This document shows positions 15,164 to 33,239 of a stretch of DNA of 41,459 bases, piece by piece; the stretch's first letter is position 1, and the number at the start of each line of letters is the position of its first letter. Position numbers and translations under genes: made by a program. The notes under the pieces are model-generated. The model had not been told where the DNA came from. It searched no databases and was given only the letters and a program-made list of their open reading frames with translations. This DNA is from Candidatus Aminicenantes bacterium RBG_16_66_30 (GTDB taxonomy: Bacteria; Acidobacteriota; Aminicenantia; Aminicenantales; Saccharicenantaceae), in NCBI GenBank assembly GCA_001775715.1, contig MEYC01000077.1:1-41459 (forward strand). Direction: 5' to 3'.

Positions 15164-15175
15164 CGGAGAATCCCC

Positions 15176-16306
15176 ATGAAGAATCTTGCCCGATGGATCA
15201 TCGGAGCGGCCCTCCCGGCCCTCTTTATCGTCGCCGCCTGCCGCGACAAGGCGCTCGTTGAACCCGGTCACCAAGCCGAAGGGGCTGGGCCCGCGACGGC
15301 GCCGAATTCGGTGACGCTGACTCCCGAGGGTGTCGTCACCGCGAACATCAAGGCCGAACCGGCCGCGATGCGTGTTCTCGCCCGGCGCGTAACGGCTGCA
15401 GGCGATCTCGAATTCAACGTCCGCCGCCTCGTCCATCTTACGGCCCGGACGCCGGGCCGGATCGAGCGCGTCCTCGTCGTCCCTGGAGACCGGGTCCGCG
15501 AAGGCCAGGTCCTGGCTGAGATCTATAGTCCGGACTATCTGACCCTCCAGGCCGAATATCTCCTGGCCGCCGAGCGGGCCAAAAGGCTAGCCGGAGACCC
15601 GGCTGAAGCGGGCCAGGCCCGAGCGCTGCTCGACAGCTCCCGTGAGCGCCTCCTCCTCGTGGGCGCATCTCCGGCCGAGGTCGAAGGGCTCGTAGCTTTG
15701 TCCCTGCCCCGGCCGCTCCTCTCCGTCCGGGCGACCCTGTCGGGGACGGTCATCGAAGCCGGCGTTCTGGCCGGCGACTGGGTCGATCTCGGGTCCAACC
15801 TTTTCCGGCTGGCCGACCTCACCACCCTCTGGGCGTGCCTTCATATCCAGGAAAAGGACCTGGCCTCCGTGAAGGCGGGGGCCGAGGCCGTGCTGAGGAC
15901 GCAAGCCTATCCCGGCGAGGATTTCCGCGGCCGGCTCGTCCTCGTCGGCGATGTCGTCGATGCCGGGACCCGGACGGTCGAGGGCCGGGTCGAGGTTCCC
16001 AATCCTCGAGGCCGGCTCAAGCCGGGAATGTACGTCGATGCATCGGTCGCGGCCGCCGGCGAAGGGGCCGTCCTCGCCGTGCCCGAATCCGCGCTTCAGG
16101 ATGACGAAGGCCATACCGTGGTCTTCGTCAAGACCGGGGAGCGGACGTTCACCCGGCGCGAGGTCAAGGCCGGCGAACGGTTCGCCGGGTACGTCGAGAT
16201 CCTCAGCGGCCTCACGGAAGGGGAGACCGTTGTCACTTCGGGAGGCTTCCTCCTGAAATCCGAGATGCGCAAGGGCGGGCTGGGAGACGAACATGGGCAT
16301 GATTGA
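15176..16306 (+). CDS. czcB: Efflux RND periplasmic adaptor (membrane fusion protein, CzcB/CusB-like)
   Basis: Lipoprotein-like N-terminus (FIVAAC). HlyD-type barrel-sandwich signatures (G.V.....V..GD.V..GQVLAEIYSPD; LKPGMYV). Confidence 0.85.
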   Translation: MKNLARWIIGAALPALFIVAACRDKALVEPGHQAEGAGPATAPNSVTLTPEGVVTANIKAEPAAMRVLARRVTAAGDLEFNVRRLVHLTARTPGRIERVLVVPGDRVREGQVLAEIYSPDYLTLQAEYLLAAERAKRLAGDPAEAGQARALLDSSRERLLLVGASPAEVEGLVALSLPRPLLSVRATLSGTVIEAGVLAGDWVDLGSNLFRLADLTTLWACLHIQEKDLASVKAGAEAVLRTQAYPGEDFRGRLVLVGDVVDAGTRTVEGRVEVPNPRGRLKPGMYVDASVAAAGEGAVLAVPESALQDDEGHTVVFVKTGERTFTRREVKAGERFAGYVEILSGLTEGETVVTSGGFLLKSEMRKGGLGDEHGHD

Positions 16307-19300: not shown

Positions 19301-19412
19301 GGTCGTCGGCGGACTGGTCTCCTCGACACTCCTGACGCTCCTGGTGCTCCCGGTGCTGTACAGCTGGCTCGGCAGGGGGAAACACAGAAACGTGTCCGAG
19401 ATCTCGCGTTAA
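16293..19412 (+). CDS. czcA: CusA/CzcA-family heavy-metal efflux RND transporter
   Basis: 1039 aa. IIERSLRKRAFVVVGVLFL...IDAFPDVTNVQVEV is the canonical HME-RND N-terminus. It has 12-TM topology with two large periplasmic loops. Overlaps the adaptor gene by 14 nt. Confidence 0.95.
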   Translation: MGMIDGIIERSLRKRAFVVVGVLFLVALGVWSVLSISIDAFPDVTNVQVEVLSAAPGMSPPEVERFVTFPVEIAMRGLPRLAQVRSISKSGLSVVTVVFEDGVDIYFARQLVLERLIEARERVPSGTEIAMGPISTAMGEIYQYTLGGDLPAGMSEIEHLTQVRTVQDWILAPLLKSIPGVNEINSFGGYIKQYHVIVDPEKLLAYDLTLGAIGDVLRRNSLNVGGNILERDERQFLVRGIGLLQNVEDIGSVALKTEGGVPVLLRDVAGIEAGQAVRQGGAVKDGTGEVVGAVVMMLRGANGRAVVRAIEHRVGEINASGVLPLGLRIEPYYRRSDIINRAIHTVTEALLIGSVLVVIVLVLFLRSFRGAFIVVLALPLSVLFTFVTMKAFGLSANLMSLGGLAISIGMIIDATIIQVENVQRHLSEKGVGTHKLSTVLKAILEVRKPSIFGELIIALTFIPIIALQGIEGKMFLPLAFTHVIALIASLLLSLFAIPAFCYMVLKPHPERKSFIVEGAKKAYLPLLRWGLRRKPYVVAVAIMLLAGTVALIPRLGTEFMPIMDEGALDTDIQFLPGISLDESLAMSRKVQARLMEFPEVVTIIGKTGQTGIALEARGVEKTGYVGVLKPREEWTSARNREELIDLMREAVEGFPGMTISFSQPIACRIDELVAGTRAQLIIKLFGEDLDVLKNKAGEIAAILGGIRGATDINVEKVAGQPYITVRPDRGRIARLGLNVEDVQSIVEAAVGGKTVTQIYEGDKYFDLQIRYPGPRRDSLEAIGAILVRTPGGARIPLSQVADIAMLEGPSQISRESGQRRIGVECNITSRDLGGFVAEARGAIARDVALPPGYFLDWGGQFESQQRAMQRLAIILPATIGLILLLLFVTFGSLRVSLLVILNLPFALIGGVLALYISGLYLSVPASVGFIALFGIAVLNGIVLLSYIAQLQEEGRTVGEAIIQGCLNRLRPVLMTATITIFSLVPLLFAQGPGSEIQRPLAVVVVGGLVSSTLLTLLVLPVLYSWLGRGKHRNVSEISR

Positions 19413-19610
19413 GGCGCCGGAAAGACGGGCGAGGCCGCGGGAGAAGGGATTGAGGGGTATCGCGAAGTGAGCATAAAGCGGTGAATTAGCCGGCATCGGG
19501 ACGGAGACCTAAGAACGGGCTCCGGACTGGGACGGCGTGAAGATTCACCGCAGCGAACGGAGACGATCCCCGAGATCCCTCGGTGGCCGAGTCTCCCATA
19601 CCCGCGCGTT

Positions 19611-19640
19611 TTGACTTCTCGCGAGCCGCTATGCTATAAG
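19611..19640 (+). promoter_or_regulatory. Sigma70-type promoter (TTGACT-18-TATAAG) 8 nt upstream of the permease ATG
   Basis: TTGACT at 19611-19616 and TATAAG at 19635-19640. ATG at 19649 with no Shine-Dalgarno sequence, implying a leaderless transcript. Confidence 0.45.
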
Positions 19641-19648
19641 TCGGCTCC

Positions 19649-21100
19649 ATGAAGAGCGTCCTGTTCGCCACGAAGAGCCTCGAAGAGCTCACCCGCGAGG
19701 CCTCGTCCGACGCTTCGGGTCTCAAGCGGGTCCTCGGCCCCTGGCACCTCATCTTCCTCGGCGTCGGGGCCATCGTCGGGGCCGGCATCTTCGTCATCAC
19801 CGGCCACGCCGCGGCCCAATACGCCGGTCCGGCCGTCACGATCTCGTTCATGCTGGCCGGGCTGACCTGCGCTTTCGCCGGCCTTTGCTACGCCGAGTTC
19901 GCCTCGCTCATCCCCATCGCCGGGAGCGCCTACACCTACGCGTACTCGACCCTGGGCGAGTTCTTCGCCTGGATCATCGGCTGGGACCTCATCCTGGAAT
20001 ACTCCCTCGGCGCGACCACGGTGGCCATCGGCTGGTCCGGCTATGTCGTCAACTTCCTCAAGGGGATCGGGATCGAGTTCCCCGCGGCCCTCGCCCAGGC
20101 GCCCTTCGCGTTCGATCCGCAGACGGGCGACTGGACGAGGACCGGCGCGGTGATCAACCTGCCCGCCGCCCTGGTCATCGCCCTGATCACCGTTATCCTC
20201 GTCCGGGGGATCAGGGAATCGGCCACCGTCAACTCGATCATCGTTTTTCTCAAGATCGGCATCATCCTCGTCTTCATCGGGGCCGGCCTGTTCTTCCTCA
20301 AGCCGGACCTGTGGAAGCCGTTCATCCCGCCGAACACGGGCCAGCCCGGCTTCTTCGGCCTGAGCGGCATCCTGCGCGGCGCCGGCATCATGTTCTTCGC
20401 CTATCTCGGCTTCGACGCCGTCTCGACCGCCGCCCAGGAGGCCCGCAATCCCAAGCGGGACATGCCCATCGGCATCCTCGGCTCGCTCTTCGCCTGCACG
20501 GCGATCTACATCGCCTTCTCGCTCGTGCTCACGGGCGTCGTGCATTACAGCCAGCTCAACGTCCCGGCGCCCGTGGCCGTGGCCATCGACGCCATGCGGC
20601 TCTTCTGGCTCTCGCCGCTGGTGAAGATCGCCGCCATCATCGGCCTGATGTCGGTCATGATGGTCCAGCTCATCGGCCAGCCGAGGATCTTCTACACCAT
20701 GGCCAAGGACGGCCTCCTGCCGCCCGTGGCGGCCAGGGTCCACCCCAAGTACGGCACCCCCCACGTCACGACCATCGGCACCGGTATCCTCGTCGCTGTC
20801 GCCGCCTCGCTCCTGCCCATGGGCATCGTCGGCGAGCTCGTCAGCATCGGGACGCTCTTCGCTTTCGCCATCGTCTGCGGCGGCGTCCTCGTCCTCCGCT
20901 ACACGCGGCCCGACATCCCCCGGCCTTTCAAGACCCCGCTCGTCCCGTTCGTCCCCGTCCTGGGCATCCTCTCCTGCCTCTACCTCATGCTCAACCTGCC
21001 CAAAGACACCTGGATCCGCCTGTTCGCCTGGATGGGGATCGGTCTCGTCATCTACTTCACCTACGGCATCCGGAAAAGCAAGCTGAGGAGACGGATATGA
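19649..21100 (+). CDS. APC-superfamily amino-acid permease (cationic amino-acid transporter-like)
   Basis: [28 protein letters not shown] and [25 protein letters not shown] are typical CAT/APC signatures. About 12-14 TM segments. Confidence 0.9.
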
Positions 21101-22554
21101 AGGAGCCCGCCGGCTTCAAGCGCGAGATGTCCCTCTTCGACGCCATGATGATCGTCATGGGGGCCATGATCGGCTCGGGCATCTTCATCGTCAGCGCCGA
21201 CATCGCCCGGACGGTCGGCTCGCCCGGCCTCCTGCTCATCGTCTGGCTCGTCACGGGCATCGTCACCGTGATCGGCGCCCTGAGCTACGGCGAGCTGGCC
21301 GGCATGATGCCCCACGCCGGAGGGCTCTACGTCTATCTCCGGGAGGCCTACAATCCGCTCATCGGATTCCTCTACGGCTGGACCACCTTCCTCGTCATCC
21401 AGACCGGGACCATCGCGGCGATCTGCGTCGCCTTCGCCAAGTTCACCGGTCTTCTCATCCCCTGGTTCAGCGAGAAGCACGTCCTGCTGACCGTCCTGGG
21501 ACTGAAGATCACGGCCGCCCAGCTCCTGGCCATCGCCTGCATCATCGTCCTGACCGCCCTCAACATGCGCGGGCTGCGCACGGGGAAGATGATCCAGGGC
21601 GTCTTCACGGTGACCAAGACGGTCGCGCTCGCCGGGCTCATCCTGCTCGGATTCATCGTCGGCGCCAACGCCGGGGCCATCAAAGCCAACCTGGCCAATT
21701 TCTGGAAGGCGAGCTGGACCCACATGGCCGACGGACGGATCGCCTCGGTCGAGCCGCTCTCCGGACTGATGATCCTGGCCGCGATCGGAGCGGCCATGGT
21801 CGGCTCGCTCTTCGCCTCGGACTCGTGGTATCAGGTCACCTATATCGCCGGCGAGGTCAAGAACCCCCGCCGGAACATCCCGCTGAGCCTCATCCTCGGC
21901 GTCGGGATCGTCATCTTCCTCTATTTCCTGGCCAACCTCGCCTATGTCGTCACTCTCCCCGTTCAGGGAGTTCCCGAAGCGGCCGACGTCATTGGGCGGG
22001 GCATCCAGTTCGCCCAGTTCGACCGGGTCGGGACGGCGGCCGCCGAGATGATCTTCGGGGCCCCGGCGGCGATCATCATGGCCGTGATGATCATGATCTC
22101 GACCTTCGGCTGCAGCAACGGGCAGATCCTGGCCGGGGCCCGGGTCTATTACGCCATGGCCCAGGACGGGCTGTTCTTCAAGGCCACGGGCAAGCTGAAC
22201 CGGAGGTCGGTCCCCGGGACGGCCCTCGTCGTCCAGGCCGTCTGGGCCAGCCTGCTCTGCCTGAGCGGGACCTACAGCGACCTGCTCGACTACGTGATCT
22301 TCGCCGTCCTCATCTTCTTCGTCCTGATCGTCTCGGGGATCTTCATCCTGAGAAAGAAGCGCCCGGATTGGGAGCGCCCCTACAAAGCCTGGGGCTATCC
22401 CGTCCTGCCCGCCCTCTATATCCTGGTCGCGGCGGCCATCGCCGTCGACCTGCTCATCGTCAAGACGAAGTACACCTTCCCGGGGCTGCTCATCGTGCTC
22501 GTGGGGATCCCGGTCTACTTCGTCCGCAAGGCGCTGGCGAAGCGCCCGGCCTGA
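21097..22554 (+). CDS. APC-superfamily amino-acid permease (LAT/SteT-like exchanger)
   Basis: Starts [33 protein letters not shown] at the ATG at 21097, overlapping the upstream stop as ATGA. The 404 aa upstream in the track ORF are out-of-frame read-through of the first permease. Confidence 0.9.
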
Positions 22555-22572: not shown

Positions 22573-22770
22573 TTACTTCGGCTTGTTCTTATCCGCTGCC
22601 AGGACCCCGGCCGCCATGTATTCCTTCGGCGAGAACTCCTGGACCCAGACCCTGATCGTCTCGAGCGGGGCGCCGATCGAATCATGGACGGCCGCCGTGA
22701 CCGCCGTGAGCAGGGCCTTCTTCTGTTCGTCCGTCCGCCCTTCGAGAAGGTGGATCTCAACGAGAGGCAT
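22573..22770 (-). CDS. 4-oxalocrotonate tautomerase-family enzyme
   Basis: 65 aa. MPLVEIHLLEGRT..EQKKALL..VT.AV is the canonical 4-OT fold sequence with catalytic Pro-1. AAGGAG Shine-Dalgarno sequence 6 nt upstream. Confidence 0.8.
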   Translation of the reverse strand: MPLVEIHLLEGRTDEQKKALLTAVTAAVHDSIGAPLETIRVWVQEFSPKEYMAAGVLAADKNKPK

Positions 22771-22886: not shown

Positions 22887-23228
22887 ATGGTCATCAAGAT
22901 CCGAGAGGCGGACAAGGTCGTCATCTTCGACGTCGAGGGAGAGATCCGCCGGTCCGATATCCCGCAGACGACCCTCCACAGCCTGGTCGAGGCCCAGCTC
23001 GACCGGGGCCGGCGGAAGGTCCTGGTCAACCTCCGCGGGGTGGATTTCATCGACAGCTTCGGCGTCGGCCAGATCCTGGCCAGCTACACCTCGACGCAGA
23101 ACCTGGGCGGCAAGTTCAAGCTTTGCGGGATATCCCAGAAGCTCCTCCTCATCTTCCAGATCACGATGCTGCACAAGGTCCTCGAGATCCACGAGGATTG
23201 CGACCGCGCCCTGGAGAGCTTTGGCTAA
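22887..23228 (+). CDS. STAS-domain anti-sigma-factor antagonist (RsbV/SpoIIAA-like)
   Basis: 113 aa. VVIFDVEGEI...LVNLRGVDFIDSFGVGQIL carries the conserved phosphorylatable Ser context (DFIDSxG). LKLCG-type strand (FKLCGIS). Confidence 0.85.
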   Translation: MVIKIREADKVVIFDVEGEIRRSDIPQTTLHSLVEAQLDRGRRKVLVNLRGVDFIDSFGVGQILASYTSTQNLGGKFKLCGISQKLLLIFQITMLHKVLEIHEDCDRALESFG

Positions 23229-23263
23229 GCGTTGCTCCGGGCGGGTCTGACGGGAGTGGCCGC

Positions 23264-25828
23264 GTGTCGCACGGCCGGCTCGAGCGCTTCCTGATCAAGT
23301 TCGGTGACGTCCGCGGCCGCGAGGCCCGGGCGGCCCTGAGCTTTTCCGCCTACTTTTTCCTCGTGACCTTCACCTTCTACATCATCAAGCCGATCAAGGA
23401 GAGCTTCCTTATCGGCTTCGCCAGGCCCGGCTGGTGGCCGTACGCCGACCTGGCCACGGCCCTCCTCATCGGCTTCGTCGTCGCCCTGAACGCCCGGCTG
23501 CTCAACCGGATGCCGCGGCGGACCTACCTCACGGCATCGCTTCTCTTCTTCGTCGCCGGCCTGTTCGCCTTCTGGTACGTCTTCGACGTCTTTCAGACCC
23601 AGGCCATCACGACCCCCGTCATCGATCCCTCCGGCATCGTCTTCTTCCTCTGGACGCAGGTCTTCATCATCAAGTCCTGGCCCCTTGCGGTCTTCGCCTT
23701 CTCCTTTTGGACCGACGTCTTCATCGCCATGTCCGTCACCCAGTTCTGGATCGCCGTCAACGACGTTTTCGATCCCCACCAGGCCAAGCGGCTCGTCGGC
23801 CTGTTCGTGACGGGCGGGCTTTTCGGCGGCATCGCCGGCTCGGCCGTGGCCGCGCTCGCCACCTTCGCCCGGATCCTCCGGCCGGAAGATCTGCTCCTCG
23901 TCGCTCCCGTCCTCCTGGCCCTGGCCTTGATCTCGGTCAACGTCGTCTACGCCGGGCAGCGCCAGGTCGACGCCGCCGTCGGGGACGGGCGCATCTCCGC
24001 CCCGGCCCGGGTGGGCCTCTGGGAAAGCTTCCGGGCGGTCCGGTCGAGCCGCTATCTCGTCCTCCTCGCGGCGATGCTGACCTCGGCCGTGGTCGCCGGG
24101 TCCCTCATCGGCTACCAGTTCAGGACCGTCGTCCGGAACGCCATCCAGAACCCCGCACAGCAAACGTCTTTCATTGCCGCCCTGTTCATGGGCATCCTGA
24201 TCGTCTCCACCGTGTTCCACCTGATCACAACCCGCCGCGTCCTCCAGTCCTACGGCATCCGCTGGGCCATCGTCATCGCCCCGGCCTTCCTTATCGCCGG
24301 GTCCCTGGCCGTCCTCCTCATCCCCGCCGGCCTCATCCTCTTCTGGGCTTGCGCCATCCGGGGCGCCGACAAGACCTTCGACAATACCATCAGCCAGTCC
24401 GTCCGGGAGCTTCTCTACATCCCCGTCCCGGCCGACGTCAAGTACAAGGGCAAGATCTTCATCGACATGTTCGTCAGCAAGTTCGCCACGGGCCTCGGCG
24501 CCGCCCTGTTCCTGGCGTTATACGGGCTCAGGAACTTCGCCTACCGGGACGACCAGACCCTCGCCAGCGCCCTGGTGATCGCCCGGGAGACGGGCTACGT
24601 GGCCCTGTTCTTCATGGCCCTCTGGCTCGTCCTGACGAGGCTCGTCTACCGGGAGTACCCGGCCATCCTCAAGAAGGATATCCGGAGGAAATGGCAGGAA
24701 GGCCAAGAGGCCCTCGACGCGAACGTCGACATCGATCTGACCCTCAAGATCTTCAACACCATCCAGAGCCGCGAGAGGAGCACGACGCTCTATTACATGA
24801 ACATCTTCAATCTCGTCCGCCACCGGAACCTGGCCCCCGAGCTCAAGGAGCTCCTCGGCATCAAACGGGACGAGCTCAAGGCCCGGGCCATGGACGCCCT
24901 CTTCGACGTCGGCGGCGGAGGCTTCTTCCCGGGTCTCGAGGAGACCATCGCCGACGCCGAATTCCAGAACGAGATCGACCTCATCTTCCTCCTGCCGTCC
25001 TACCAGGAGATCATGGGCAAGAGGCTCGGCGAGATCGTCGGCTCCGCCTCCGAAGTGGACCGGATCGAGGCGGCCAACAGCATCAGCCGGATGGTCCCGA
25101 CCGAGCCCACTCTCGAGGCCCTCGGCCGGCTCCTCCAGGACCCCTCCTCGGAGGTCGTCCTCTACGCCCTCGGCAGCGCGTCCGTCCACCGGCGTCCGGA
25201 ACACGTCCCTCTGATCCTCCTCCTGCTGGCCAATCCGGTGGCCCGCGACGAGGCCCAGAGGACGCTGGCCGCCTACGGCCCCGGCGTCGAGGACCTCCTC
25301 GCCGCGGCCCTCCGGGAGGAGACCGAGCCGCTGGACGTCCGCCGGGCCGTCCCGGAAGTCCTGGCCCGGATCGGCACTCAGCGCGCCGCCGACATCCTCC
25401 TCGAGACACTCGCCCTCCGCCGGGACGACCTGGAGCCGGCCCTCGTCGACGCCCTCTACAAGATCCGGGCCGACCGCCCCGGGGTCCGCTTCCGGGAGAG
25501 GTCCGTCCGGCCCGAGCTCCTGTCCCTGGCCCGGAAGGCCTGCGACGCCGCCCTCAACCCGTCCGGCTCCGGCGACGAGGCCCGGGCGGCCTTGACCATC
25601 CGGATCAAGCGCGTCTTCGACCTGATGACGCTCCTGTACCCCCGCGAGGACGTCGTCAACGCCTATCAGAACCTCATCCAGGGGACGGCCCGCTCCGCCG
25701 ACTACTCCCTGGAGAGCCTCGACATCCTTCTCGACCGCGACCTCAAGGGGCTCCTCTGGCCGCTCATCGAGGACCTCCCCGCGGAGGAGAGGGACCTGCG
25801 CCTGAAACGGGCGATGAGGTTGAAATGA
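23264..25828 (+). CDS. TLC-family (ATP/ADP translocase / Npt-like) membrane transporter fused to a roughly 390-aa C-terminal HEAT-repeat domain
   Basis: GTG start at 23264 behind GGGAG. The N-terminal half has TLC-type signatures: FFLVTFTFYIIKPIKESFL (compare LNYSTLRSIKD of rickettsial Tlc) and FWIAVNDVFDPHQAKRLVGLFVTGGLFGG (compare FWQFANQITKIAEAKRFY). About 12 TM segments. From about 24650 onward there are repeated helical-hairpin units (LGRLLQDPSSEVVLYALGSA..., VRRAVPEVLARIGTQRAADILLETL...) typical of HEAT/PBS-lyase repeats. Confidence 0.8.
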   Translation: MSHGRLERFLIKFGDVRGREARAALSFSAYFFLVTFTFYIIKPIKESFLIGFARPGWWPYADLATALLIGFVVALNARLLNRMPRRTYLTASLLFFVAGLFAFWYVFDVFQTQAITTPVIDPSGIVFFLWTQVFIIKSWPLAVFAFSFWTDVFIAMSVTQFWIAVNDVFDPHQAKRLVGLFVTGGLFGGIAGSAVAALATFARILRPEDLLLVAPVLLALALISVNVVYAGQRQVDAAVGDGRISAPARVGLWESFRAVRSSRYLVLLAAMLTSAVVAGSLIGYQFRTVVRNAIQNPAQQTSFIAALFMGILIVSTVFHLITTRRVLQSYGIRWAIVIAPAFLIAGSLAVLLIPAGLILFWACAIRGADKTFDNTISQSVRELLYIPVPADVKYKGKIFIDMFVSKFATGLGAALFLALYGLRNFAYRDDQTLASALVIARETGYVALFFMALWLVLTRLVYREYPAILKKDIRRKWQEGQEALDANVDIDLTLKIFNTIQSRERSTTLYYMNIFNLVRHRNLAPELKELLGIKRDELKARAMDALFDVGGGGFFPGLEETIADAEFQNEIDLIFLLPSYQEIMGKRLGEIVGSASEVDRIEAANSISRMVPTEPTLEALGRLLQDPSSEVVLYALGSASVHRRPEHVPLILLLLANPVARDEAQRTLAAYGPGVEDLLAAALREETEPLDVRRAVPEVLARIGTQRAADILLETLALRRDDLEPALVDALYKIRADRPGVRFRERSVRPELLSLARKACDAALNPSGSGDEARAALTIRIKRVFDLMTLLYPREDVVNAYQNLIQGTARSADYSLESLDILLDRDLKGLLWPLIEDLPAEERDLRLKRAMRLK

Positions 25829-25863
25829 CCCCGGCGCGTCATCTAGTATAGAGTAGTATAGAG
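25820..25863 (+). promoter_or_regulatory. Candidate internal promoter (TTGAAA-18-TAGTAT) overlapping a perfect tandem 10-mer (TAGTATAGAG x2)
   Basis: TTGAAA at 25820-25825. TAGTATAGAG lies at 25844-25853 and again at 25854-25863. This AT-rich patch sits in the 48-nt spacer before the ATG at 25877. Confidence 0.35.
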
Positions 25864-25876
25864 AGAGGCGAGACCC

Positions 25877-27556
25877 ATGGCCCAACTCTACATCTATCCG
25901 AAGACGGGGGAGCCCTCGAGCTTCCCGCTGGGCGCGCGCCGCGTGACGATCGGGCGCGCCTCGACGAACGATATCGTCCTGTCCGATCAGTACAGCTCGG
26001 GCGTCCACGCCGTCCTCGCCCCGTCCGAGAAGGGCTATGTCCTCATCGACCAGGGCAGCAAGAACGGGACCTTCGTCAACGGGCGCCGCGTCAACGGCGA
26101 GCTCGACCTCACCCGGGGCGACGAGATCCTCATCGGCTCGACCCGCTTCTACTTCGACCGGGACGTCCAGCCGGCCGTCGAGACGGTCGAAGGGACGACC
26201 TTCACCCACAGCTCCAACACGATCATCCAGGTCAAGGACATCCTCCGGAAGCCGTCCGCCACGTCCGTCCCCTTGAAGACCCCCGGCGGAGGGCTCGACC
26301 TCCAGCGCTTCCAGCAGGACCAGAAGATGAGCGCCGTCATCGGCGAGGTCAGCCAGGCCCTGATCTACCACATGCCGCTCGACAAGCTCCTCGAGCATAT
26401 CATGGACGTCCTCATCCAGCACCTGCCCATGGACCGGGGCGTCCTCATGCTGAAGAACGAGGTCTCCCAGGCCCTCGAGCCCAAGGTCGTCCGGGTCCAG
26501 AACGGGGCCCTGCGCACGCAGAGCATCTTCGTCAGCCAGACCATCGTCAAGACGGCCCTGGAGCGCAACTCGGCCATCCTCATCTCGGACATCCAGGCCG
26601 ACGAGGGGCTGCGGGCCCAGGCGAGCGTCGTGCAGGCCCAGATCCACTCGGCCATGTGCGTGCCGCTCTGGAACAACCAGGACATCATCGGCCTGATCTA
26701 CTGCGACCGAGCCTCCCTGCTCGAGCAGTTCTCCGAGGACGACCTGCGGCTCCTGACGCTCCTGGCCAACCTGGCCGCCGTCAAGATCGAGAACGCCCGT
26801 CTCTACGAGGAATCCGTCAAGGCCATGCAGTACGAGCGGGAGATGTCGCTGGCCGTTCAGATCCAGAAGAACTTCCTGCCCCGCGACGAGCCCGACTTCG
26901 CCCCCTACGACATCAGCGGCAACGCCCGGGCCTGCCGCCACGTCGGCGGCGACTACTACGACTACATCCCCGTCGAGAAGGACCGCCTGGCCATCGTCAT
27001 CGCCGACGTGTCCGGCGTCGGCGTCAGCGCGTCCCTCCTCATGGCTTCCCTCCGGGGCGCGCTCCACGAACGGTTCCCGGCGGACTTCGGGCTGAGCGAC
27101 CTGACCTCGAAGCTCAACGACTTCGTCTACGCGAGCTCGGACAGCCACTGTTTCATCTCCTTCTTCCTGGCCGTCCTCGACCGCCGCGCGCACGAGCTCG
27201 CTTACGTCAACGCCGGGCACAATCCGCCCCTCGTCGTCGGGGCCGGAGGCGGGGTCCAGACGCTCGCGTCGACGGGGCTCTGCCTGGGGATGTTCCCCGC
27301 CCAGCCCTACGAGGAACGCCGGCTCACCCTCGCCCCGGGCGACATCCTCTGCCTGTACACGGACGGGATCGTCGAGAGCCGGAAGGGCGAGGCCGAGGAA
27401 TACGGGGACGCCCGGCTGGCCGAGCGGGTCCGGGAGCACAGCGGCCTCACGGCCATGGAGATCCGGGACAGGATCTTCGAGGACGTCTTCGCCTTCAGCG
27501 GCTGCACCGAAGCCGGGGACGACATGACGCTCGTCGTCGTCAAACGGGAGCGGTGA
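25877..27556 (+). CDS. FHA-GAF-PP2C (SpoIIE/RsbU-type) serine phosphatase
   Basis: FHA domain: RVTIGRASTNDIVL...SGVHAVL...LIDQGSKNGTFVNG. The central domain is GAF-like. PPM domain: GGDYYDY, IADVSGVGVSASLLMA, LYTDGIVE, GDDMTLVVVK. Confidence 0.9.
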   Translation: MAQLYIYPKTGEPSSFPLGARRVTIGRASTNDIVLSDQYSSGVHAVLAPSEKGYVLIDQGSKNGTFVNGRRVNGELDLTRGDEILIGSTRFYFDRDVQPAVETVEGTTFTHSSNTIIQVKDILRKPSATSVPLKTPGGGLDLQRFQQDQKMSAVIGEVSQALIYHMPLDKLLEHIMDVLIQHLPMDRGVLMLKNEVSQALEPKVVRVQNGALRTQSIFVSQTIVKTALERNSAILISDIQADEGLRAQASVVQAQIHSAMCVPLWNNQDIIGLIYCDRASLLEQFSEDDLRLLTLLANLAAVKIENARLYEESVKAMQYEREMSLAVQIQKNFLPRDEPDFAPYDISGNARACRHVGGDYYDYIPVEKDRLAIVIADVSGVGVSASLLMASLRGALHERFPADFGLSDLTSKLNDFVYASSDSHCFISFFLAVLDRRAHELAYVNAGHNPPLVVGAGGGVQTLASTGLCLGMFPAQPYEERRLTLAPGDILCLYTDGIVESRKGEAEEYGDARLAERVREHSGLTAMEIRDRIFEDVFAFSGCTEAGDDMTLVVVKRER

Positions 27557-27571
27557 GGGACGGGGCAGGCC

Positions 27572-27991
27572 ATGGCGCGAACGGACCTCCGCGAGATCGT
27601 CGTCCCGGCCGACCTCAAGGACGTCGACCGCGTCCGGGGGTTCCTGAACGACTACACCGCCGGCCTGGGGCTCGACGAGGAAGACCGGCTCAAGATCGAG
27701 CTCGCGCTCCACGAGATCTGCGTCAACATCGCCATGTACGCCTACCCCCAGGAGCCCCGCGGCCTCATGGCCATCCGCATCTGGCGCGAAGGCGGAGCGC
27801 TCGTCATCGAGGTCCGGGACAAAGGCGTTCCGTTCAATCCGGTCAAGAGGAAGAACCCCGACCTGATGCTCAAGCTGCGGCGCGGGCTGCCCGGAGGCCT
27901 GGGCGTGTATTTCTACCGGACCCTCATGGACGGCCTGTCCTACCGGCGGGCGCGGGGCGAGAACGTCCTGACTGTCCGCAAAGCCCTTTGA
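27572..27991 (+). CDS. RsbW/SpoIIAB-like anti-sigma-type serine protein kinase (HATPase_c_2)
   Basis: 139 aa. N-box HEICVNIAMYA, VRDKGVPFNP (D-box-like) and GLPGGLGVYF (G-box). Last gene of the STAS operon. Confidence 0.85.
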   Translation: MARTDLREIVVPADLKDVDRVRGFLNDYTAGLGLDEEDRLKIELALHEICVNIAMYAYPQEPRGLMAIRIWREGGALVIEVRDKGVPFNPVKRKNPDLMLKLRRGLPGGLGVYFYRTLMDGLSYRRARGENVLTVRKAL

Positions 27992-28067
27992 CCTGACCTA
28001 TTCATAAAAAACGCCCGGTTCTTCTCCATTGCGGTCTTAATAGGGCGTTTTTATGAATAAGTCAGGT
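27991..28067. terminator. Bidirectional intrinsic terminator / long AT-rich inverted repeat between the two convergent modules
   Basis: ACCTGACCTATTCATAAAAAACGCCC (27991-28016) pairs with GGGCGTTTTTATGAATAAGTCAGGT (28043-28067), with one mismatch and one indel. The inner CGCCC/GGGCG stem is flanked by an A-tract and a T-tract, so it reads as a terminator in both directions. It fills essentially the whole 79-nt spacer. Confidence 0.65.
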
Positions 28068-28070
28068 GGA

Positions 28071-28901
28071 TCAGTAGAGGACCTTAGCCTCCCCGTTGAC
28101 CTTGATGAGCCGGTCGATCTCCTGCAGGATGAGGTCGCGCCGGACGAGGACGGCCTCGATCTCCGCGTCCGTGAGATACTCCCCGACGACGGCCTTGATG
28201 CCCGCGAGATCGAGGCTCCGGACCTTGTCGACGATGGCCCGGGGCAGCTCGCTCATGAGCTTCGGGCCCTCGGGGTTCTTGGCCGAATAGAGCAGGGTCT
28301 TGACGAACCGGCCCGAGGTCCGGAACGAGCGGGAGTGGTCGATGAGGATCATCCGCCAGTCGGGCGCGATGAAGACGTTGTTCTTATGCCGGTCCTCGTT
28401 GGCGATGAGGTTGTCGAAGAACCGCTGGAGGTAGGTCGCCCGGTTCCAGGAGAAGTTCTTGGCCAACGGCATCTTGATCCTTTTTTCGTCGCGGTCCCGG
28501 AGCGACATGCTGTCATCGATCCAGTACTGGCAGGACCCCCGCTCGCCGCGGAACCGGCGCTCGACGGTCGGCGGGACCATACCCAGGCCGAGATGCTTGT
28601 CGAGCAGGTAGGCGGCGATCTCGTAGGTCCAGCCCTCCCAGTAGCCGCCCATGCGGCCCTGGGCGTTCTTCCAGAGGCCCCGGTGAGTGACCTCGCCCTT
28701 CTCGAGCGTCAGGATCCAGGGCTTGGTCACGGCCTCGGACCCCCCCATCTGCTCGCTCGAGACGACCTCCGCGGTCCTGAGGAAGTCCTCGCAGGTCTCG
28801 CGCTGTTTGAGCTCGTCAGCCGTGAATTGGAGGGCCAGGAGGGACCCCGCGGCCAGGGACAGAGCCGCGACCGATATCACCCATCCACGTCGTCTGTGCA
28901 T
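28071..28901 (-). CDS. Exported PI3/PI4-kinase-like (protein-kinase-fold) domain protein, paralogue K1
   Basis: Start MHRRRGWVISVAALSLAAGSLLA (signal or anchor) behind GGAGGA. Kinase-like landmarks: LWKN (candidate beta3 Lys), YEIAAYLLDKHLGLGMVPPTVER, QYW, NEDRHKNN (equivalent to DRHxxN of the PI3/4K catalytic loop) and LIDHSRSF (DFG-equivalent). The functional call is by motif only. Confidence 0.65.
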   Translation of the reverse strand: MHRRRGWVISVAALSLAAGSLLALQFTADELKQRETCEDFLRTAEVVSSEQMGGSEAVTKPWILTLEKGEVTHRGLWKNAQGRMGGYWEGWTYEIAAYLLDKHLGLGMVPPTVERRFRGERGSCQYWIDDSMSLRDRDEKRIKMPLAKNFSWNRATYLQRFFDNLIANEDRHKNNVFIAPDWRMILIDHSRSFRTSGRFVKTLLYSAKNPEGPKLMSELPRAIVDKVRSLDLAGIKAVVGEYLTDAEIEAVLVRRDLILQEIDRLIKVNGEAKVLY

Positions 28902-28958
28902 CCTATCCTCCGTCAGCCTCGGTAATCCCGCACGCACCGGGGGCGGCCCGGGCCGCCC

Positions 28959-29798
28959 TCAATAGATGACCGCGGCCTCTCCCAACTCTTTGATCATGCC
29001 GGCGATCTCCGCGAGCAGGAGGTCGCGGCGCGCGAGGACGGCCTTGATCTCCCGGTCCTTGAGCGTCTCCCCGACGGCGGCCTTGATATTCTCGAAGGTC
29101 AAGGTCCGGATCTTGTCGACGAACCAGCGGGGCAGGCGGCGGAAGAGCCACGGCGTGCCCTGCGAGGACACCTTGATCCCGTCGCGGCCGAACATGAGGC
29201 GCTTGATGAACTCCCCGGTCGACCGGAAGGCCCGGGAGTGGTCGAAGAGGACCATCCGCCAGTCCTCGGTGTAGAGGACGTTCTGCTGGGTCCGGTCCTC
29301 GTTGGCGATGAGGCTGTCCCAGGCCCGGGCGATATATTTCATCTTCTCGGTGTGGTCGAGAACCTCGTCGGGGATGCGGATCCCGTCCTCGGCGATCTTG
29401 AGCAGGCTGTATTTGCTCTCGGCCCAGAGGACGAGCGCGCCGGGGCTTCCGAGGAACTTACGCTCAACGGCCGGCGGGACCATGTTCAGGCCGATGAGCT
29501 TGTCGAGACGGTAGGCAGCGATCTCGTACTGCCAGCCCTCGAGATAGCCGCCCATCTGGCCGTGAGGGTTCTTCCAGGCGGCCTTCCCCTCGACGTCGCC
29601 CTTCTTGAGATAGAGCTTCCAGGGCTTGGTCACGCCCTCGCCGATGGGCTCGGACCGGACGATCTCGGCCGTGCGCAGGAACTCCTCCTGGGACTCTCGT
29701 TGGGCGATCTCCTCGGGCCGGAACTGGGCCGAGGCCGGCCGGGGCGCGGCTGCCAATGCGAACGCCAGGGCCACAGCGAGAATGGTGACGCGTTTCAT
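28959..29798 (-). CDS. Exported PI3/PI4-kinase-like domain protein, paralogue K2
   Basis: Start MKRVTILAVALAFALAAAPRPASAQ (classic signal peptide, AxA site) behind GGGAGGGAG. Collinear with K1: EEFLRTAEIV, AAWKN, YEIAAYRLDKLIGLNMVPPAVER, NEDRTQQN, LFDHSRAF. Confidence 0.65.
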   Translation of the reverse strand: MKRVTILAVALAFALAAAPRPASAQFRPEEIAQRESQEEFLRTAEIVRSEPIGEGVTKPWKLYLKKGDVEGKAAWKNPHGQMGGYLEGWQYEIAAYRLDKLIGLNMVPPAVERKFLGSPGALVLWAESKYSLLKIAEDGIRIPDEVLDHTEKMKYIARAWDSLIANEDRTQQNVLYTEDWRMVLFDHSRAFRSTGEFIKRLMFGRDGIKVSSQGTPWLFRRLPRWFVDKIRTLTFENIKAAVGETLKDREIKAVLARRDLLLAEIAGMIKELGEAAVIY

Positions 29799-29857
29799 GG
29801 GCTCCCTCCCGTCGACCGGGCCATCTGAAAAAATCATAGCCCCTTTGGGCCTTGATT

Positions 29858-31360
29858 TCAAGCCGCCGCCGCGGCCCCTTCAGCGGCCGCCTTGCGCCTC
29901 TTGTAGGCCTTGATGATCCGGAGGCAGATCACGAAGAGGACGGCGACAACGGCGACGTTGAGCAAGGCGTAGCGCTCGATCGGGAGGCCGAGGAGCGTGA
30001 CCCCGGCGAACACGGCCAGGGCGGAGAGCGTGTCCCCGCCCCGGACGAAGAAGGTGTCGATGGCCGCCTTGGCCTTGTATTTCTCCTCCCTCTTAGTGAC
30101 GAGGAAGAGGGCGGCCTTGGTCGTGTTCTGGAGGGAATAGTCCGTGCCGTTCTCGACGGCCTTGACCCAGCGGACGAGGAGGAAGACGGCCCCGAAGGAG
30201 ATCAGGGCGTAGCCGCCCAGGGCGATGATCGGCAGAAAGAGCAGGGCCCCGCCGACGCCGACCCACTTGAAAACTCGCGAGACGAGGAAGAGCTGGATGA
30301 CCAGGGCGATCAGGTTCGTCAGGAACTGGTAGTTCATGAAGGCGCTATGGATGGCCTTGCTCTCTGTCTTCGTCGCGACGGGGGGCGAGGCGGACGGCAG
30401 TCCCTCCGCAGCCGCCGCCCCGGCCTCCGCTCCCGGCCGGAGGGCCGGCGCGTCCGCGGGCGCCGGGGCGGCGGCCGCGATCGACCGCTTGACCGTGACG
30501 TCGGTCATGATGAACTCCCCGGTCGCGTTGACGAAGTTGTAGAGGCCGATCATGACGGCGATGAGGAGGAGATAGCGGCTCCCGAAGATGAGGCGGAATC
30601 CGCCGCCGGTCTTGAGGGGTTGCTCCTGGACCTGGGCCCTTTCTTCGGCCCCGGCCAGGCCCTTCTCCCGCTCGTCGCGGGTTTTGCGGACGTCCCGCCG
30701 GTGGATCAGCCTGGCCAGGACGATGCAAAGGAGGAGGATCACCCCGGCGATGAGCATGAGCTTGAATTCCCAGTTTCCGCCGAGGAGGTCCCTCAGCTTC
30801 TTCATGAACGGCAGGGTCGCGATGAGCCCGCCGAGCGTCGCGCCCAGGGCGACGAGGGGAAAGGTCCGCTTGCCGACTTCCTCCGAATAGAGGTCGTTGG
30901 CGAAGCCCCAGAACTGGGCGATGACGAAGTAGTTGAAGATGCCGACCCAGATGAAGAACATGATGCCCATGGGCTTGACGGCCATGCCGCCGGCGTGGAG
31001 GGCGTAAAAGAGGACGAGATTGGAGATGAAGAACGATGTCGTCCAGGTTATAAGGGCATGCCGGGGGACCTTGGAGGCCAGGCGGCTGAAGGCCTTGATG
31101 ACGAAAACGAACAGGACGGCTTGGGCCCCGCTCAGGTAGCTTTTGACGGGGGCGGAGTCCTTGTCCACGAGGAGGAGCGACTCGCGCAGGGGCTTGAGGA
31201 TGTAATAGGCGAGGAGCAGGAGGAAGATGTTGAGCGCCAGGAGGAGCGCCTTGGGGGCCTCGCCTTGCCGGACGTCGGCGAAGATCCTCAGCAACCTGTA
31301 GCCGACGCCGTAGCGGGCCGCGCCCGGGGGCGGTGAGGCCGCCGGCGGGGCATCGGGCAT
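29858..31360 (-). CDS. TLC-family (ATP/ADP translocase / Npt-like) nucleotide transporter homologue
   Basis: 500 aa and about 12 TM segments. LLLAYYILKPLRESLLL and AQFWGFANDLYSEEVGKRTFPLVALGATLGG match the two best-conserved TLC blocks. AAAGGAG Shine-Dalgarno sequence in the 22-nt gap after the upstream gene. Ala/Pro-rich insert at aa 294-333. Confidence 0.85.
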   Translation of the reverse strand: MPDAPPAASPPPGAARYGVGYRLLRIFADVRQGEAPKALLLALNIFLLLLAYYILKPLRESLLLVDKDSAPVKSYLSGAQAVLFVFVIKAFSRLASKVPRHALITWTTSFFISNLVLFYALHAGGMAVKPMGIMFFIWVGIFNYFVIAQFWGFANDLYSEEVGKRTFPLVALGATLGGLIATLPFMKKLRDLLGGNWEFKLMLIAGVILLLCIVLARLIHRRDVRKTRDEREKGLAGAEERAQVQEQPLKTGGGFRLIFGSRYLLLIAVMIGLYNFVNATGEFIMTDVTVKRSIAAAAPAPADAPALRPGAEAGAAAAEGLPSASPPVATKTESKAIHSAFMNYQFLTNLIALVIQLFLVSRVFKWVGVGGALLFLPIIALGGYALISFGAVFLLVRWVKAVENGTDYSLQNTTKAALFLVTKREEKYKAKAAIDTFFVRGGDTLSALAVFAGVTLLGLPIERYALLNVAVVAVLFVICLRIIKAYKRRKAAAEGAAAAA

Positions 31361-31382
31361 CGCTGGGCTCCTTTCCGCGTCG

Positions 31383-33239
31383 TCAGAAGAGGACGTTCTG
31401 CTCCCCGGCCATCTTGATCCGAAGGCGGATCGTGCGGACGATCTCGGCCCGGCGGGCGTTGAGGGCGGCGGTCTCCGCCGGATCGAGGAAGCGGCCGACG
31501 TATTCGGCGACGGTCCTGTCGTCCCAGCCGAGGAGCTTCTTGTAGAGGAGGCGCGAGACCCGGAGGATGGGGCAGCGGGCCGGGGGACGCTTGTCCGGCG
31601 CGAAGGCCTCGGAGAAGTCGACCCGGTAGATCCGGCCGTCGTCGCCGCTGATCAGGGTGTCCCGCTCGTTGTGGCAGTCGTCGAAGGCGAGGTTCTGGAA
31701 GACCAGGAGGTCGGCCAGGGCCTTTTCGTGCGCGTTGGGATCGATAAGATCGACCTTCTTTTCCTTGCGCTCCGCTTCCGACATGGCGTTGGGGACGAAG
31801 ACCTGGACGGCCCCGGGGGTTCCCTCGACGGTCCGCTCGACGATGGGCGGGACGATGCCGACATCGAGGTACTTGTTGAGGGCGTAGGCGGCGAGCTCGT
31901 ACCGGTAGCTGTCCGCGAGCGGCTCGGGCCGTCGCCGGTCGACATACTTGAAAAGGGCCGTGAGGACGACGCCCTGGGATTCCAGGGTGAGCTTCCAGGC
32001 GTCGGTCCGGCCGCCGGGCCCGGGCCCGCGGCCGGTGATCGAGGCCGTCCGGAGGAAGGTCTCCATCTCCTTGCGGGTCAGCGGTTTGAGGGGAGGCGGC
32101 TTGATGCCGCTGCGGGCGGCCACCTCCTCGGTCTCGCCCCAGAGCCGGAACTCGCCGTTCTCGTAGATCAAGGCCGAGGGGACGCCGCCGTAGCTTCCGG
32201 CGATGCCCGTATCCATGATCCAGACCTTGTCCTGGAAGCGGGCGATGTGCTGCTTCGTGATGACCGGGCTCCGGCCGCCGCCGTAGGCGAAAAAATTGTG
32301 CCCGATGACCATGGCCCGGGCGCCCATGTTTTGCAGGATCCGGTCCACCTCGGCCTGGGCCGCCCGTCCGCTTTCGGCCAGCCCGCGGAACCAGAGCGGG
32401 CCGTCGGGGTTGTAAACGACCTTCGGCTTGAAGGGGCGGGCGGTCCGCTGGGGGTCGCGCATGATCGCTCGGAACTGCTGGAGCTCCGAGCGGACGACAG
32501 TGTTGATCTCCCGGAGCGGCCATTTGGAGAATTCCTCGCTGATGCCCCCGTGGACATAGACGACGCCGTTGATCATAACGACAGTGTTCTTCTTGATGAA
32601 CCAGTCGCCGACGCTGTCGTTGAAGCCCTCGACGTAGGCCCGCCGGGCCTCGGGGTCCTTGCTGGCGATGATCGATCGCCAGAAGTCGGCCACCCCCTGA
32701 TCGGTCTCGACGTCGAGGCCGTCGATCTCGGCGCGCCTACGCTCCTCCGGGGGGAGGGACCGGATGTACCCGGCCTCGCGGGCCCTGCGGAAATCCTCGG
32801 GCAGGAACGACACGAGCTGCTCGACCGTGACGTAGTTCGGGTAGTCCAGGGCGATCCCGGTGACGTTCATCTCTTCGTGGTTGCCGAGGAGCACATGGAC
32901 CATGCCGCCGGCGGCCTCGGCCTCCTTCTCGAGGCGCATGAGCAGATCGATGATCCGGCGGGCGTGGGGGCCCCGGTCCAGGATGTCGCCGAGCTGGACG
33001 AGGTGGGCCTTGCCGCCGATCCAGCGGAGGTCGTTGTCGATGAGGGCGACCTGAGGGTGGGCGAGGATGTAGATGAACTGCTCGAAGTCGCCATGGAGGT
33101 CGGCGACGGCCACGACGCGGTCGATGCCCGTCCAGGCGTAGGGGGTCTCCTCGGCCGGGGAGGAGAGGGCGAGCAGGGCGAGAAAGAGCAGGAGAAGAAG
33201 GAGCGGCGATCGGAGGCGGTCCTTCCTTCGAGCTGACAT
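31383..33239 (-). CDS. Exported fusion protein: PPP-family (Shelph/ApaH-like) metallophosphoesterase plus a C-terminal PI3/PI4-kinase-like domain (paralogue K3)
   Basis: Signal peptide LLLLLLFLALLALSSPAEE. PPP motifs VADLHGD, GDILDRGP, GNHE, VHGG and IGHN. The C-terminal 230 aa are collinear with K1/K2 (METFLRTASI, ALFKY, YELAAYALNKYLDVGIVPPIVER, RVDFSEAF). The catalytic loop is altered (DDCHNERD). Confidence 0.85.
   Translation of the reverse strand: MSARRKDRLRSPLLLLLLFLALLALSSPAEETPYAWTGIDRVVAVADLHGDFEQFIYILAHPQVALIDNDLRWIGGKAHLVQLGDILDRGPHARRIIDLLMRLEKEAEAAGGMVHVLLGNHEEMNVTGIALDYPNYVTVEQLVSFLPEDFRRAREAGYIRSLPPEERRRAEIDGLDVETDQGVADFWRSIIASKDPEARRAYVEGFNDSVGDWFIKKNTVVMINGVVYVHGGISEEFSKWPLREINTVVRSELQQFRAIMRDPQRTARPFKPKVVYNPDGPLWFRGLAESGRAAQAEVDRILQNMGARAMVIGHNFFAYGGGRSPVITKQHIARFQDKVWIMDTGIAGSYGGVPSALIYENGEFRLWGETEEVAARSGIKPPPLKPLTRKEMETFLRTASITGRGPGPGGRTDAWKLTLESQGVVLTALFKYVDRRRPEPLADSYRYELAAYALNKYLDVGIVPPIVERTVEGTPGAVQVFVPNAMSEAERKEKKVDLIDPNAHEKALADLLVFQNLAFDDCHNERDTLISGDDGRIYRVDFSEAFAPDKRPPARCPILRVSRLLYKKLLGWDDRTVAEYVGRFLDPAETAALNARRAEIVRTIRLRIKMAGEQNVLF

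Follow-up and report, generated by a model that had tools for sequence, protein, structure and literature searches.

The 41-kb stretch of DNA studied here (the window), from a member of the Candidatus Aminicenantes (Acidobacteriota), encodes at positions 22887-27991 the parts of an Rsb-type phospho-switch, namely a STAS protein, an RsbW-like kinase and a PP2C-type phosphatase, together with a TLC/NTT-family carrier that bears a HEAT-repeat tail (TLC-HEAT). Comparison of orthologous loci indicates that the switch genes and the TLC-HEAT gene are a conserved functional unit and not a chance neighbourhood, and we conclude from the sequence data that the switch probably controls the carrier system rather than transcription. 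The carrier belongs to a larger conserved set, together with a plain TLC carrier, a pair of exported kinase-fold proteins and a phosphoesterase that is likewise exported.

The gene string and its products

The window has a GC content of ~66% and, being GC-rich, contains many spurious open reading frames (ORFs); the real frames were chosen by the GC content at third codon positions (GC3 0.91-0.96), with one frame per gene. Positions 22887-27991 are filled by four co-directional plus-strand genes, which run from the ATG of the STAS gene (22887) to the final base of the kinase stop codon (27991). A preliminary description of the region had placed four plus-strand genes here, and its coordinates proved exact to the base, with the domains confirmed by Pfam. 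The string and the hairpin at its end comprise the following features (lengths in amino acids, aa, or nucleotides, nt):

22887..23228, plus strand: STAS single-domain protein of the anti-sigma-antagonist type, 113 aa (PF01740, 1.8e-13; TIGR00377)
23264..25828, plus strand: TLC/NTT-family carrier with HEAT-repeat tail, 854 aa (PF03219, PF13646)
23315-24682, plus strand: membrane domain of the carrier, 12 helices, about aa 18-473
24653-25825, plus strand: cytoplasmic tail of the carrier, aa 464-854, by hydropathy
25877..27556, plus strand: FHA-GAF-PP2C (SpoIIE-type) phosphatase, 559 aa, with FHA at aa 23-87, GAF at aa 168-304 and PP2C at aa 368-557 (Pfam)
27572..27991, plus strand: RsbW-like GHKL serine kinase, 139 aa (PF13581, HATPase_c_2, 3.6e-27)
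27991..28067, no strand: palindromic AT-rich hairpin, 77 nt, with inverted repeats of 20 nt and 10 nt (-33.2 kcal/mol, z = -6.5)

The gaps along the string, from STAS through carrier and phosphatase to kinase, measure 35, 48 and 15 nt. A 65-aa tautomerase gene (22573-22770, minus strand) diverges from the start of the string, and the 3' end is marked by the strong hairpin and converges with the next gene. Given the common strand, the short gaps, the divergent start, the hairpin at the end and the 4-nt overlaps found in relatives (see below), the four genes form one operon. The hairpin spans the whole convergent gap, from the stop codon of the kinase gene to that of the next gene; in the related loci with gene calls that were read, the gap at this position is at most a few nt (the genes are directly adjacent in loci L001 and L003, and in L087 they overlap). 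The hairpin probably acts as a terminator in both directions or is an inserted palindromic element, perhaps both.

The gap between the carrier and phosphatase genes (25829-25876, 48 nt) is unusually AT-rich and holds a direct repeat (AGTATAGAG x2). The sole sigma-70-like promoter match of the region (TTGAAA-18-TAGTAT, 25820-25849) is located at this gap and, as a single consensus match, was given no weight. The same two genes overlap or are spaced by 40 nt in relatives.

The STAS protein passes the cut-off of the anti-sigma-antagonist superfamily (TIGR00377; 64.2 bits, cut-off 53.45). Its putative phosphorylatable residue, the DSxG serine already pointed out in the preliminary description, is S57 in FIDSFGVG (D56-S57-F-G-V-G), and D56, S57 and G59 are kept in 90-91 of the 91 orthologues. 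The kinase shows invariant residues in the N-box (E47, N51), the G1 box (D81, G83) and the G2 box (G106, G107, G109) among 12 diverse orthologues, and scores far below the NCBIfam equivalogs RsbW, SpoIIAB and RsbA (22-39 bits, cut-offs 135-210). For the phosphatase, the Pfam matches are strong throughout (FHA 1.2e-18, GAF 7.6e-17, SpoIIE/PP2C (PF07228) 1.9e-48), and both the PP2C motifs (GGDYYD, DVSGxG, TDGxxE, DDxT) and the phospho-threonine residues of the FHA domain (G26, R27, S41, H44, N63, G64) are invariant across 90 orthologues. All components of a functional phospho-switch are under purifying selection, and we infer that they are active.

Set against the Rsb/SpoIIA type, the string provides the DSxG STAS protein, the GHKL kinase with its N, G1 and G2 boxes and the PP2C phosphatase with intact metal motifs; what it does not provide is a kinase above the equivalog cut-offs or a local cognate sigma factor, either in the 41-kb window or within ~10 kb around annotated orthologous loci. 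No sigma-70 domain was detected in the ~35 ORFs scanned against Pfam and NCBIfam across the window, in agreement with the earlier observation that no sigma gene is found in or next to the string.

The carrier start was placed at GTG 23264, which is preceded by a Shine-Dalgarno site (GGGAG). This start is the most likely one because of that site and because the resulting protein, at 854 aa, is as long as the 100%-identical database protein P0001. The membrane domain matches PF03219 with 7.9e-13 and 48.5 bits (gathering score 21) over residues 62-512, counted on the long ORF, and the tail matches HEAT_2 (PF13646, 2.4e-8). By hydropathy, the membrane helices end at about aa 463 and a tail of 391 aa remains, close to the roughly 390 aa estimated previously. 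An AlphaFold2 model built with 117 homologues (mean predicted local distance difference test, pLDDT, of 82) comprises a membrane domain of 12 helices, a linker of low confidence at ~aa 473-565 and a confident alpha-solenoid at aa 565-852; on this model the tail would have the shape of a protein-docking surface tied to the membrane domain by a flexible linker.

In a Foldseek search of the PDB with the carrier, the top five matches are NTT1 structures, with 9j3n and 9j3l the best and other MFS carriers ranking lower; the TM-scores against the 2025 structures of NTT1 of Chlamydia pneumoniae and Arabidopsis are 0.68-0.74 on the target. The tail matches designed alphaRep/HEAT-like repeat proteins. 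The family profile likewise recovers NTT1 (1.1e-43) and AtNTT1 (7.7e-36), with AKR and K-x-K-x-x-I-D motifs that they have in common with the family. The score against the NTP/NDP exchange transporter family TIGR00769 is far below the cut-off (30.4 bits, cut-off 387.2), which marks the carrier as a distant TLC/NTT branch and not a canonical ATP/ADP translocase. An exhaustive search returned 6,275 homologues, in which the Aminicenantes-type carriers grade into a large group of proteins of 900-1,260 aa at 25-30% identity, with full-length alignments to proteins of 900-1100 aa from other phyla; these are the NTT-HEAT and NTT-HEAT-cNBD (cyclic-nucleotide-binding domain) fusions described by others (PMC5381601). 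With an NTT domain and C-terminal HEAT repeats in one protein, the carrier of the window has the defining architecture of the NTT-HEAT clade. A cyclic-nucleotide-binding partner (PF00027), which is frequent though not universal in that clade, was found neither in the window nor in the Aminicenantes loci read.

Conservation of the unit and its neighbours

A scan with the carrier, using one genome per species, gave 80 loci, all from Aminicenantes and with carrier identities of 34-76%, and the window proteins were mapped onto the six-frame ORFs of these loci. The phosphatase gene is found directly 3' of the carrier gene in all 77 loci with enough downstream sequence, and the STAS gene directly 5' in all 60 loci with a readable upstream end. 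For the STAS adjacency a script had returned 57 of 63, and a hand check of the six misses showed three stop-to-stop ORF overlaps and three carriers cut by contig ends. In relatives, the stop and start codons of STAS and carrier, as well as those of carrier and phosphatase, overlap by 4 nt, indicating co-translation.

Three arrangements were evident. Type A is that of the window, with STAS, TLC-HEAT, PP2C and kinase followed by four convergent minus-strand genes. Type B, the arrangement of roughly half of the species, Saccharicenans among them, carries a tandem pair of TLC-HEAT genes flanked by STAS and PP2C, and a kinase gene is lacking downstream; it is located ~7 kb upstream on the same strand, beyond the four minus-strand genes, which identifies type B as a cyclic permutation of type A. 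The earlier picture of a switch wrapped around a transporter gene holds for only one of the three arrangements, type A. In the third arrangement, seen in a second locus of one genome (L085), a divergent PP2C gene is followed by STAS, TLC-HEAT and a short metallophosphoesterase gene. The plain TLC and exported kinase-fold genes are absent from this locus, and no kinase was found in its 17.6-kb stretch, which includes no more than 4.6 kb of sequence 5' of STAS.

In the type B examples L081:5514-10499 and L094:3959-8951, the tandem TLC-HEAT copies are ~30-40% identical to each other's clade and share one STAS gene. The metallophosphoesterase of type B is split into two genes, one for the Metallophos part and one for the kinase-fold part.

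The linkage is also seen from the side of the kinase. In a kinase-centred metagenome scan, nearly all of 58 loci (kinase identity 36-89%) had the kinase gene in the switch-carrier cluster wherever flanking sequence exists, and the next tier of kinases (30-39% identity) belongs to ordinary STAS/PP2C modules without a carrier. Three loci encode PP2C and kinase as a single ORF of 708-740 aa (L025:10519-12738, L129:1085-3208, L131:1075-3198). No sigma factor or transcription factor was found within ~10 kb in the Pfam-annotated orthologous loci, across the three arrangements. The outer flanks vary among loci (L001 versus L002; L085; type B) while the core holds together, so that shared synteny alone does not explain the association.

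These results bear on the preliminary description, according to which the output of the switch may be the transporter itself, an idea that a conserved sigma partner elsewhere and a TLC-HEAT gene absent from orthologous loci would have contradicted. The gene-order comparison found the TLC-HEAT gene present in the orthologous loci and no sigma partner in those annotated with Pfam, and the STAS-TLC-HEAT-PP2C unit, conserved wherever it could be assessed among 80 species loci, adds plausibility to a transporter output. The four switch and carrier genes were recognised correctly; the unit is larger than had been stated, since an adjacent operon with a second TLC gene (29858-31360) was overlooked. 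This four-gene minus-strand operon (28071-33239) lies 80 nt downstream of the kinase gene:

28071..28937, minus strand: SCOa, exported kinase-fold protein, SCO1664-like and probably Fam20-like, 288 aa, with N-terminal signal/anchor (TIGR03843 1.1e-11, below cut-off)
28959..29861, minus strand: SCOb, exported kinase-fold paralogue, 300 aa, 47-49% identical to SCOa, with signal/anchor sequence
29858..31360, minus strand: second, plain TLC/NTT-family carrier without HEAT tail, 500 aa (PF03219 8.7e-18)
31383..33239, minus strand: exported metallophosphoesterase, 618 aa, with signal peptide, PPP/ApaH/PrpE-like N-terminal domain and C-terminal SCO-like domain (PF00149 3.1e-10)

The PrpE/ApaH and TIGR03843 matches of the metallophosphoesterase are weak; its C-terminal domain aligns with SCOa and SCOb and represents a third kinase-fold copy. 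A profile made from 46 SCO-type domains found FAM20A/B/C in the PDB at 6.5e-7 to 1e-3 over short stretches, and type II PI4-kinases weakly. The SCO-type residues K90, E106, E126, D182 and D200, a Lys/Glu/Asp set of catalytic type, are conserved, including a D-R-x-x-x-N loop. The Pfam families PI3_PI4_kinase, Fam20C and HipA_2 gave sub-threshold matches to the SCO-type proteins (E 0.02-0.09), and a structure model of the SCO-type kinase fold from three window sequences was unusable (pLDDT 42). Because of the sub-threshold Pfam matches and the unusable model, we describe SCOa and SCOb only as kinase-fold proteins that are probably Fam20-like.

The four minus-strand genes are found with the switch in most of the Aminicenantes loci, the plain TLC gene is present in most orthologous clusters, and the convergent junction of the kinase gene with SCOa (abutting or with a few nt between) is kept in most orthologous loci, with an insertion of ~2.2-2.5 kb in L101 and L105. 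Many relatives have, inside the exported-protein operon and on the opposite strand, a gene for a lipoprotein with SdiA-regulated/phytase-like beta-propeller domains (for example L081:426-1289, L039:2272-3153 and L086:12048-12893), which the window does not contain.

Further upstream in the window are two tandem amino-acid permease genes (19649-21100 and ~21097-22554), the second hidden within the listing of a long out-of-frame ORF, and an RND-type efflux operon (13922-19412) that precedes the cluster; this flank (13922-22554) is syntenic only in the closest relatives. Two long minus-strand ORFs of high GC3, at 95-1420 (441 aa) and 39846-41429 (527 aa), have no Pfam match at E <= 0.01.

Outside the Aminicenantes, six distant TLC-HEAT contexts were read, which is a small sample. 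A gene for a cyclic-nucleotide-binding protein of 139-143 aa lies directly downstream of TLC-HEAT in three of the six (L089, L090, L092), and a cyclic-nucleotide-binding domain is fused to the carrier in many database proteins. A metallophosphoesterase (Metallophos) gene adjoins TLC-HEAT in four contexts (L089, L091 and L093 among them), as it does in L085; a plain TLC gene lies directly upstream in two, a gene recognisably related to that of the exported kinase-fold protein occurs in two, and a HAMP-PP2C gene occurs in one; a STAS gene was found in none of the six. In these few contexts the neighbours that recur are the metallophosphoesterase, the plain TLC carrier and the kinase-fold protein, and the small regulator is exchangeable. 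The pairing or fusion with a cyclic-nucleotide-binding regulator in other phyla agrees with the idea of a carrier that accepts small regulators from the cytoplasm. In two of the non-Aminicenantes loci (L088:5170-5763, L092:4701-5994), a gene for an extracytoplasmic function (ECF) sigma factor and a ~150-aa gene without Pfam match, possibly an anti-sigma factor, stand next to TLC-HEAT, and in these lineages the carrier may be controlled by transcription.

Candidate targets of the switch

We suggest that the Rsb-type phospho-switch has the TLC-HEAT carrier system as its dedicated target in place of a sigma factor, with the STAS protein as its output, an account that we hold to be quite possible though short of probable. 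The RsbW-like kinase, to judge by its family and its invariant catalytic residues, would phosphorylate the STAS protein on Ser57 at the expense of ATP, and the FHA-GAF-PP2C phosphatase, on the same kind of grounds, would remove this phosphate when the FHA domain (through a phospho-threonine partner) and the GAF domain (through a small ligand) report the right state. Gene linkage suggests that the STAS protein would be the output of the switch, and that in one state, most likely the unphosphorylated one, it could bind the HEAT solenoid of the carrier and change transport. In distant relatives, a cyclic-nucleotide-binding protein would occupy the equivalent putative regulator role. RsbW-type kinases such as RsbW of Bacillus depend on the ATP/ADP ratio, and for this reason we speculate that the circuit could couple carrier activity to the energy charge of the cell.

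The STAS protein is favoured over the RsbW-like protein as the candidate partner of the carrier for four reasons: (i) the adjacency of STAS and carrier genes is absolute in the assessable loci, (ii) the kinase gene can be 7 kb off, fused to the phosphatase gene or missing from the locus stretch, (iii) fused kinase-phosphatase proteins are typical of switches in which a STAS protein is the effector, such as SypE-SypA and HsbR-HsbA, and (iv) a cyclic-nucleotide-binding protein appears to fill the equivalent role in relatives.

Several points weigh against a carrier-directed switch. Gene linkage fits equally well an action on the carrier protein, on transcription of the cluster or on another cluster member. 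Like true anti-sigma factors, the kinase is a bare GHKL domain (139 aa), which makes its sequence indecisive. Among the distant contexts, an ECF sigma gene adjoins TLC-HEAT in two of the six, and the STAS gene stands upstream of the carrier whereas the gene for the cyclic-nucleotide-binding protein stands downstream, so that the analogy between the two regulators is functional and not positional. The 41-kb window also leaves room for a sigma target encoded elsewhere, as in the chlamydial Rsb system, which has no adjacent sigma gene and reportedly acts on sigma-66, whose gene lies at a separate locus (PMC4552016).

One rival account is a classical partner switch whose target is remote. The RsbW-like protein would then sequester a sigma factor encoded elsewhere, the unphosphorylated STAS protein would free it, and the carrier genes would merely be co-transcribed or part of the regulon. 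The presence of all three canonical switch parts with intact catalytic residues is in keeping with such a design, as are the STAS score above the anti-sigma-antagonist cut-off, the chlamydial precedent of a non-adjacent sigma factor (PMC4552016) and the small share that 41 kb takes of a several-Mb genome. We nevertheless consider it unlikely, given that no sigma gene was found within ~10 kb in the Pfam-annotated orthologous loci of any of the three arrangements, that the kinase orthologues are confined to the cluster in nearly all of the 58 loci where flank exists, and that the kinase is far under the RsbW, SpoIIAB and RsbA equivalog cut-offs. The kinase-phosphatase fusions, together with the 17.6 kb of L085 in which no kinase was found, are moreover hard to square with a free sigma-sequestering protein.

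Also unlikely is an action on a different cluster member or by a different route, with the HEAT tail used otherwise. The FHA-docked phosphatase might dephosphorylate a phospho-threonine of the carrier, or the STAS protein might act on the plain TLC carrier or determine whether the secreted kinase and phosphoesterase set is exported or active. No linkage is tighter or more constant than the adjacency of STAS and TLC-HEAT, which persists in L085, where the plain TLC and exported kinase-fold genes are absent, and cytoplasmic switch proteins could not contact exported proteins directly. Conversely, the entire nine-gene set co-migrates, and the most constant neighbour of the kinase gene is the first exported kinase-fold gene and not the carrier. 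The invariant phospho-threonine residues of the FHA domain also lend this route some plausibility; the cluster contains no Hanks-type kinase or obvious phospho-threonine partner, and the carrier linker (aa 473-565), of low model confidence, could hold phosphosites.

A chance or merely syntenic neighbourhood without functional tie is highly improbable and was rejected on the conservation data across the 80 species loci and the kinase-centred scan: amino-acid permeases, an AcrB-type pump, NamZ and glutamine synthetase in the outer flanks are also syntenic in the closest relatives, but the core is intact while the flanks change (L001 versus L002; L085; type B), at identities as low as 34% it has withstood cyclic permutation, gene fusions and a duplication of the carrier, and its overlapping stop and start codons point to co-translation.

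The cluster as a whole could be a machine for extracytoplasmic phosphorylation, although we rate this wider proposal as decidedly unlikely. Both TLC/NTT carriers would then pass ATP to the periplasm in exchange for ADP. This ATP would serve the two exported Fam20-like kinases, and the exported PPP-type phosphoesterase would reverse their action, with the switch gating export through the HEAT tail according to energy charge and the cyclic-nucleotide-binding protein gating it in other phyla. The association of carriers with exported kinase-fold proteins and a phosphoesterase raises the question of what purpose nucleotide traffic across the inner membrane serves in free-living anaerobes, and a periplasmic supply of ATP is one possible answer. 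If true, it would represent a bacterial counterpart of the import of ATP into the ER/Golgi (endoplasmic reticulum and Golgi apparatus) for Fam20C, and would give the NTT-HEAT family a role in free-living bacteria.

Comparison with known systems

A close likeness is to the RsbU/RsbV/RsbW-sigmaB and SpoIIE/SpoIIAA/SpoIIAB-sigmaF switches of B. subtilis, with which the Aminicenantes operon shares a STAS protein with a DSxG serine, a small GHKL kinase and a SpoIIE-type PP2C phosphatase. Unlike these, it has no sigma gene in or near the annotated orthologous loci and is embedded in a carrier operon; its kinase is below the RsbW/SpoIIAB equivalog cut-offs, and its phosphatase bears FHA and GAF input domains.

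Partner switches with outputs other than sigma factors include SypE-SypA of Vibrio fischeri, HsbR-HsbA of Pseudomonas, BtrU/V/W of Bordetella and the IcfG cluster of Synechocystis. Such non-sigma outputs are documented (PMC10120452, PMC8256260), and a STAS-based module has been described for the heterocyst polysaccharide layer of Anabaena (bioRxiv 10.64898/2026.04.08.717354). As in these switches, the STAS protein is the likely output in the Aminicenantes, and kinase and phosphatase can be one polypeptide, the layout of the fusions in L025, L129 and L131 resembling SypE or HsbR. The differences concern the target and the input: the candidate target is a membrane carrier encoded directly after the STAS gene, whereas the listed systems have no known link to TLC/NTT carriers, and the phosphatase carries FHA and GAF domains in place of their receiver domain. 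Partner-switching modules are widespread, many of them without a known output, and here the genomic evidence points to one testable target, the tailed carrier.

A STAS fold as cytoplasmic regulator of a transporter has precedents as well. SLC26/SulP carriers have a C-terminal STAS domain as regulatory unit, and MlaB, a STAS protein, is bound to the MlaF ATPase (PMC7367683). In the Aminicenantes the corresponding binding is predicted from gene adjacency and the signs of co-translation; the STAS units of SLC26/SulP and MlaB are fused or constitutively bound to unrelated transporter classes and come without an RsbW/PP2C pair.

With NTT1 of Chlamydia pneumoniae and Arabidopsis (9j3n, 9j3l), the carrier shares the fold of the membrane domain and the AKR and K-x-K-x-x-I-D motifs; it differs in an identity of only 16-19%, in the extra 391-aa tail and in a score far below the TIGR00769 cut-off. 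As it comes from a lineage of free-living anaerobes, energy parasitism is not expected.

The carrier is also close to the NTT-HEAT and NTT-HEAT-cNBD fusions, described from bacterial phyla, Chlamydia and oomycetes with no member characterised (Major, Embley and Williams 2017, PMC5381601). It is homologous to this clade over its full length, including both the NTT domain and the HEAT tail. The clade is also paired with a small cytoplasmic regulator from the same operon, although the identity is only ~25-30% and the candidate regulator is a phospho-STAS protein with its own kinase and phosphatase and not a cyclic-nucleotide-binding domain. We did not find in the searchable literature the combination of a phospho-STAS switch in an NTT-HEAT operon, class-wide, with exported kinase-fold proteins and a phosphoesterase, and none of the three papers in which the term 'NTT-HEAT' occurs deals with partner switching. 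Non-sigma partner switches, STAS-regulated transporters and NTT-HEAT fusions were each already known separately, and it is their combination that appears to be new. That two unrelated regulators, a phospho-STAS switch and a cyclic-nucleotide sensor, are associated with one carrier family suggests that the HEAT tail could serve as a regulatory socket.

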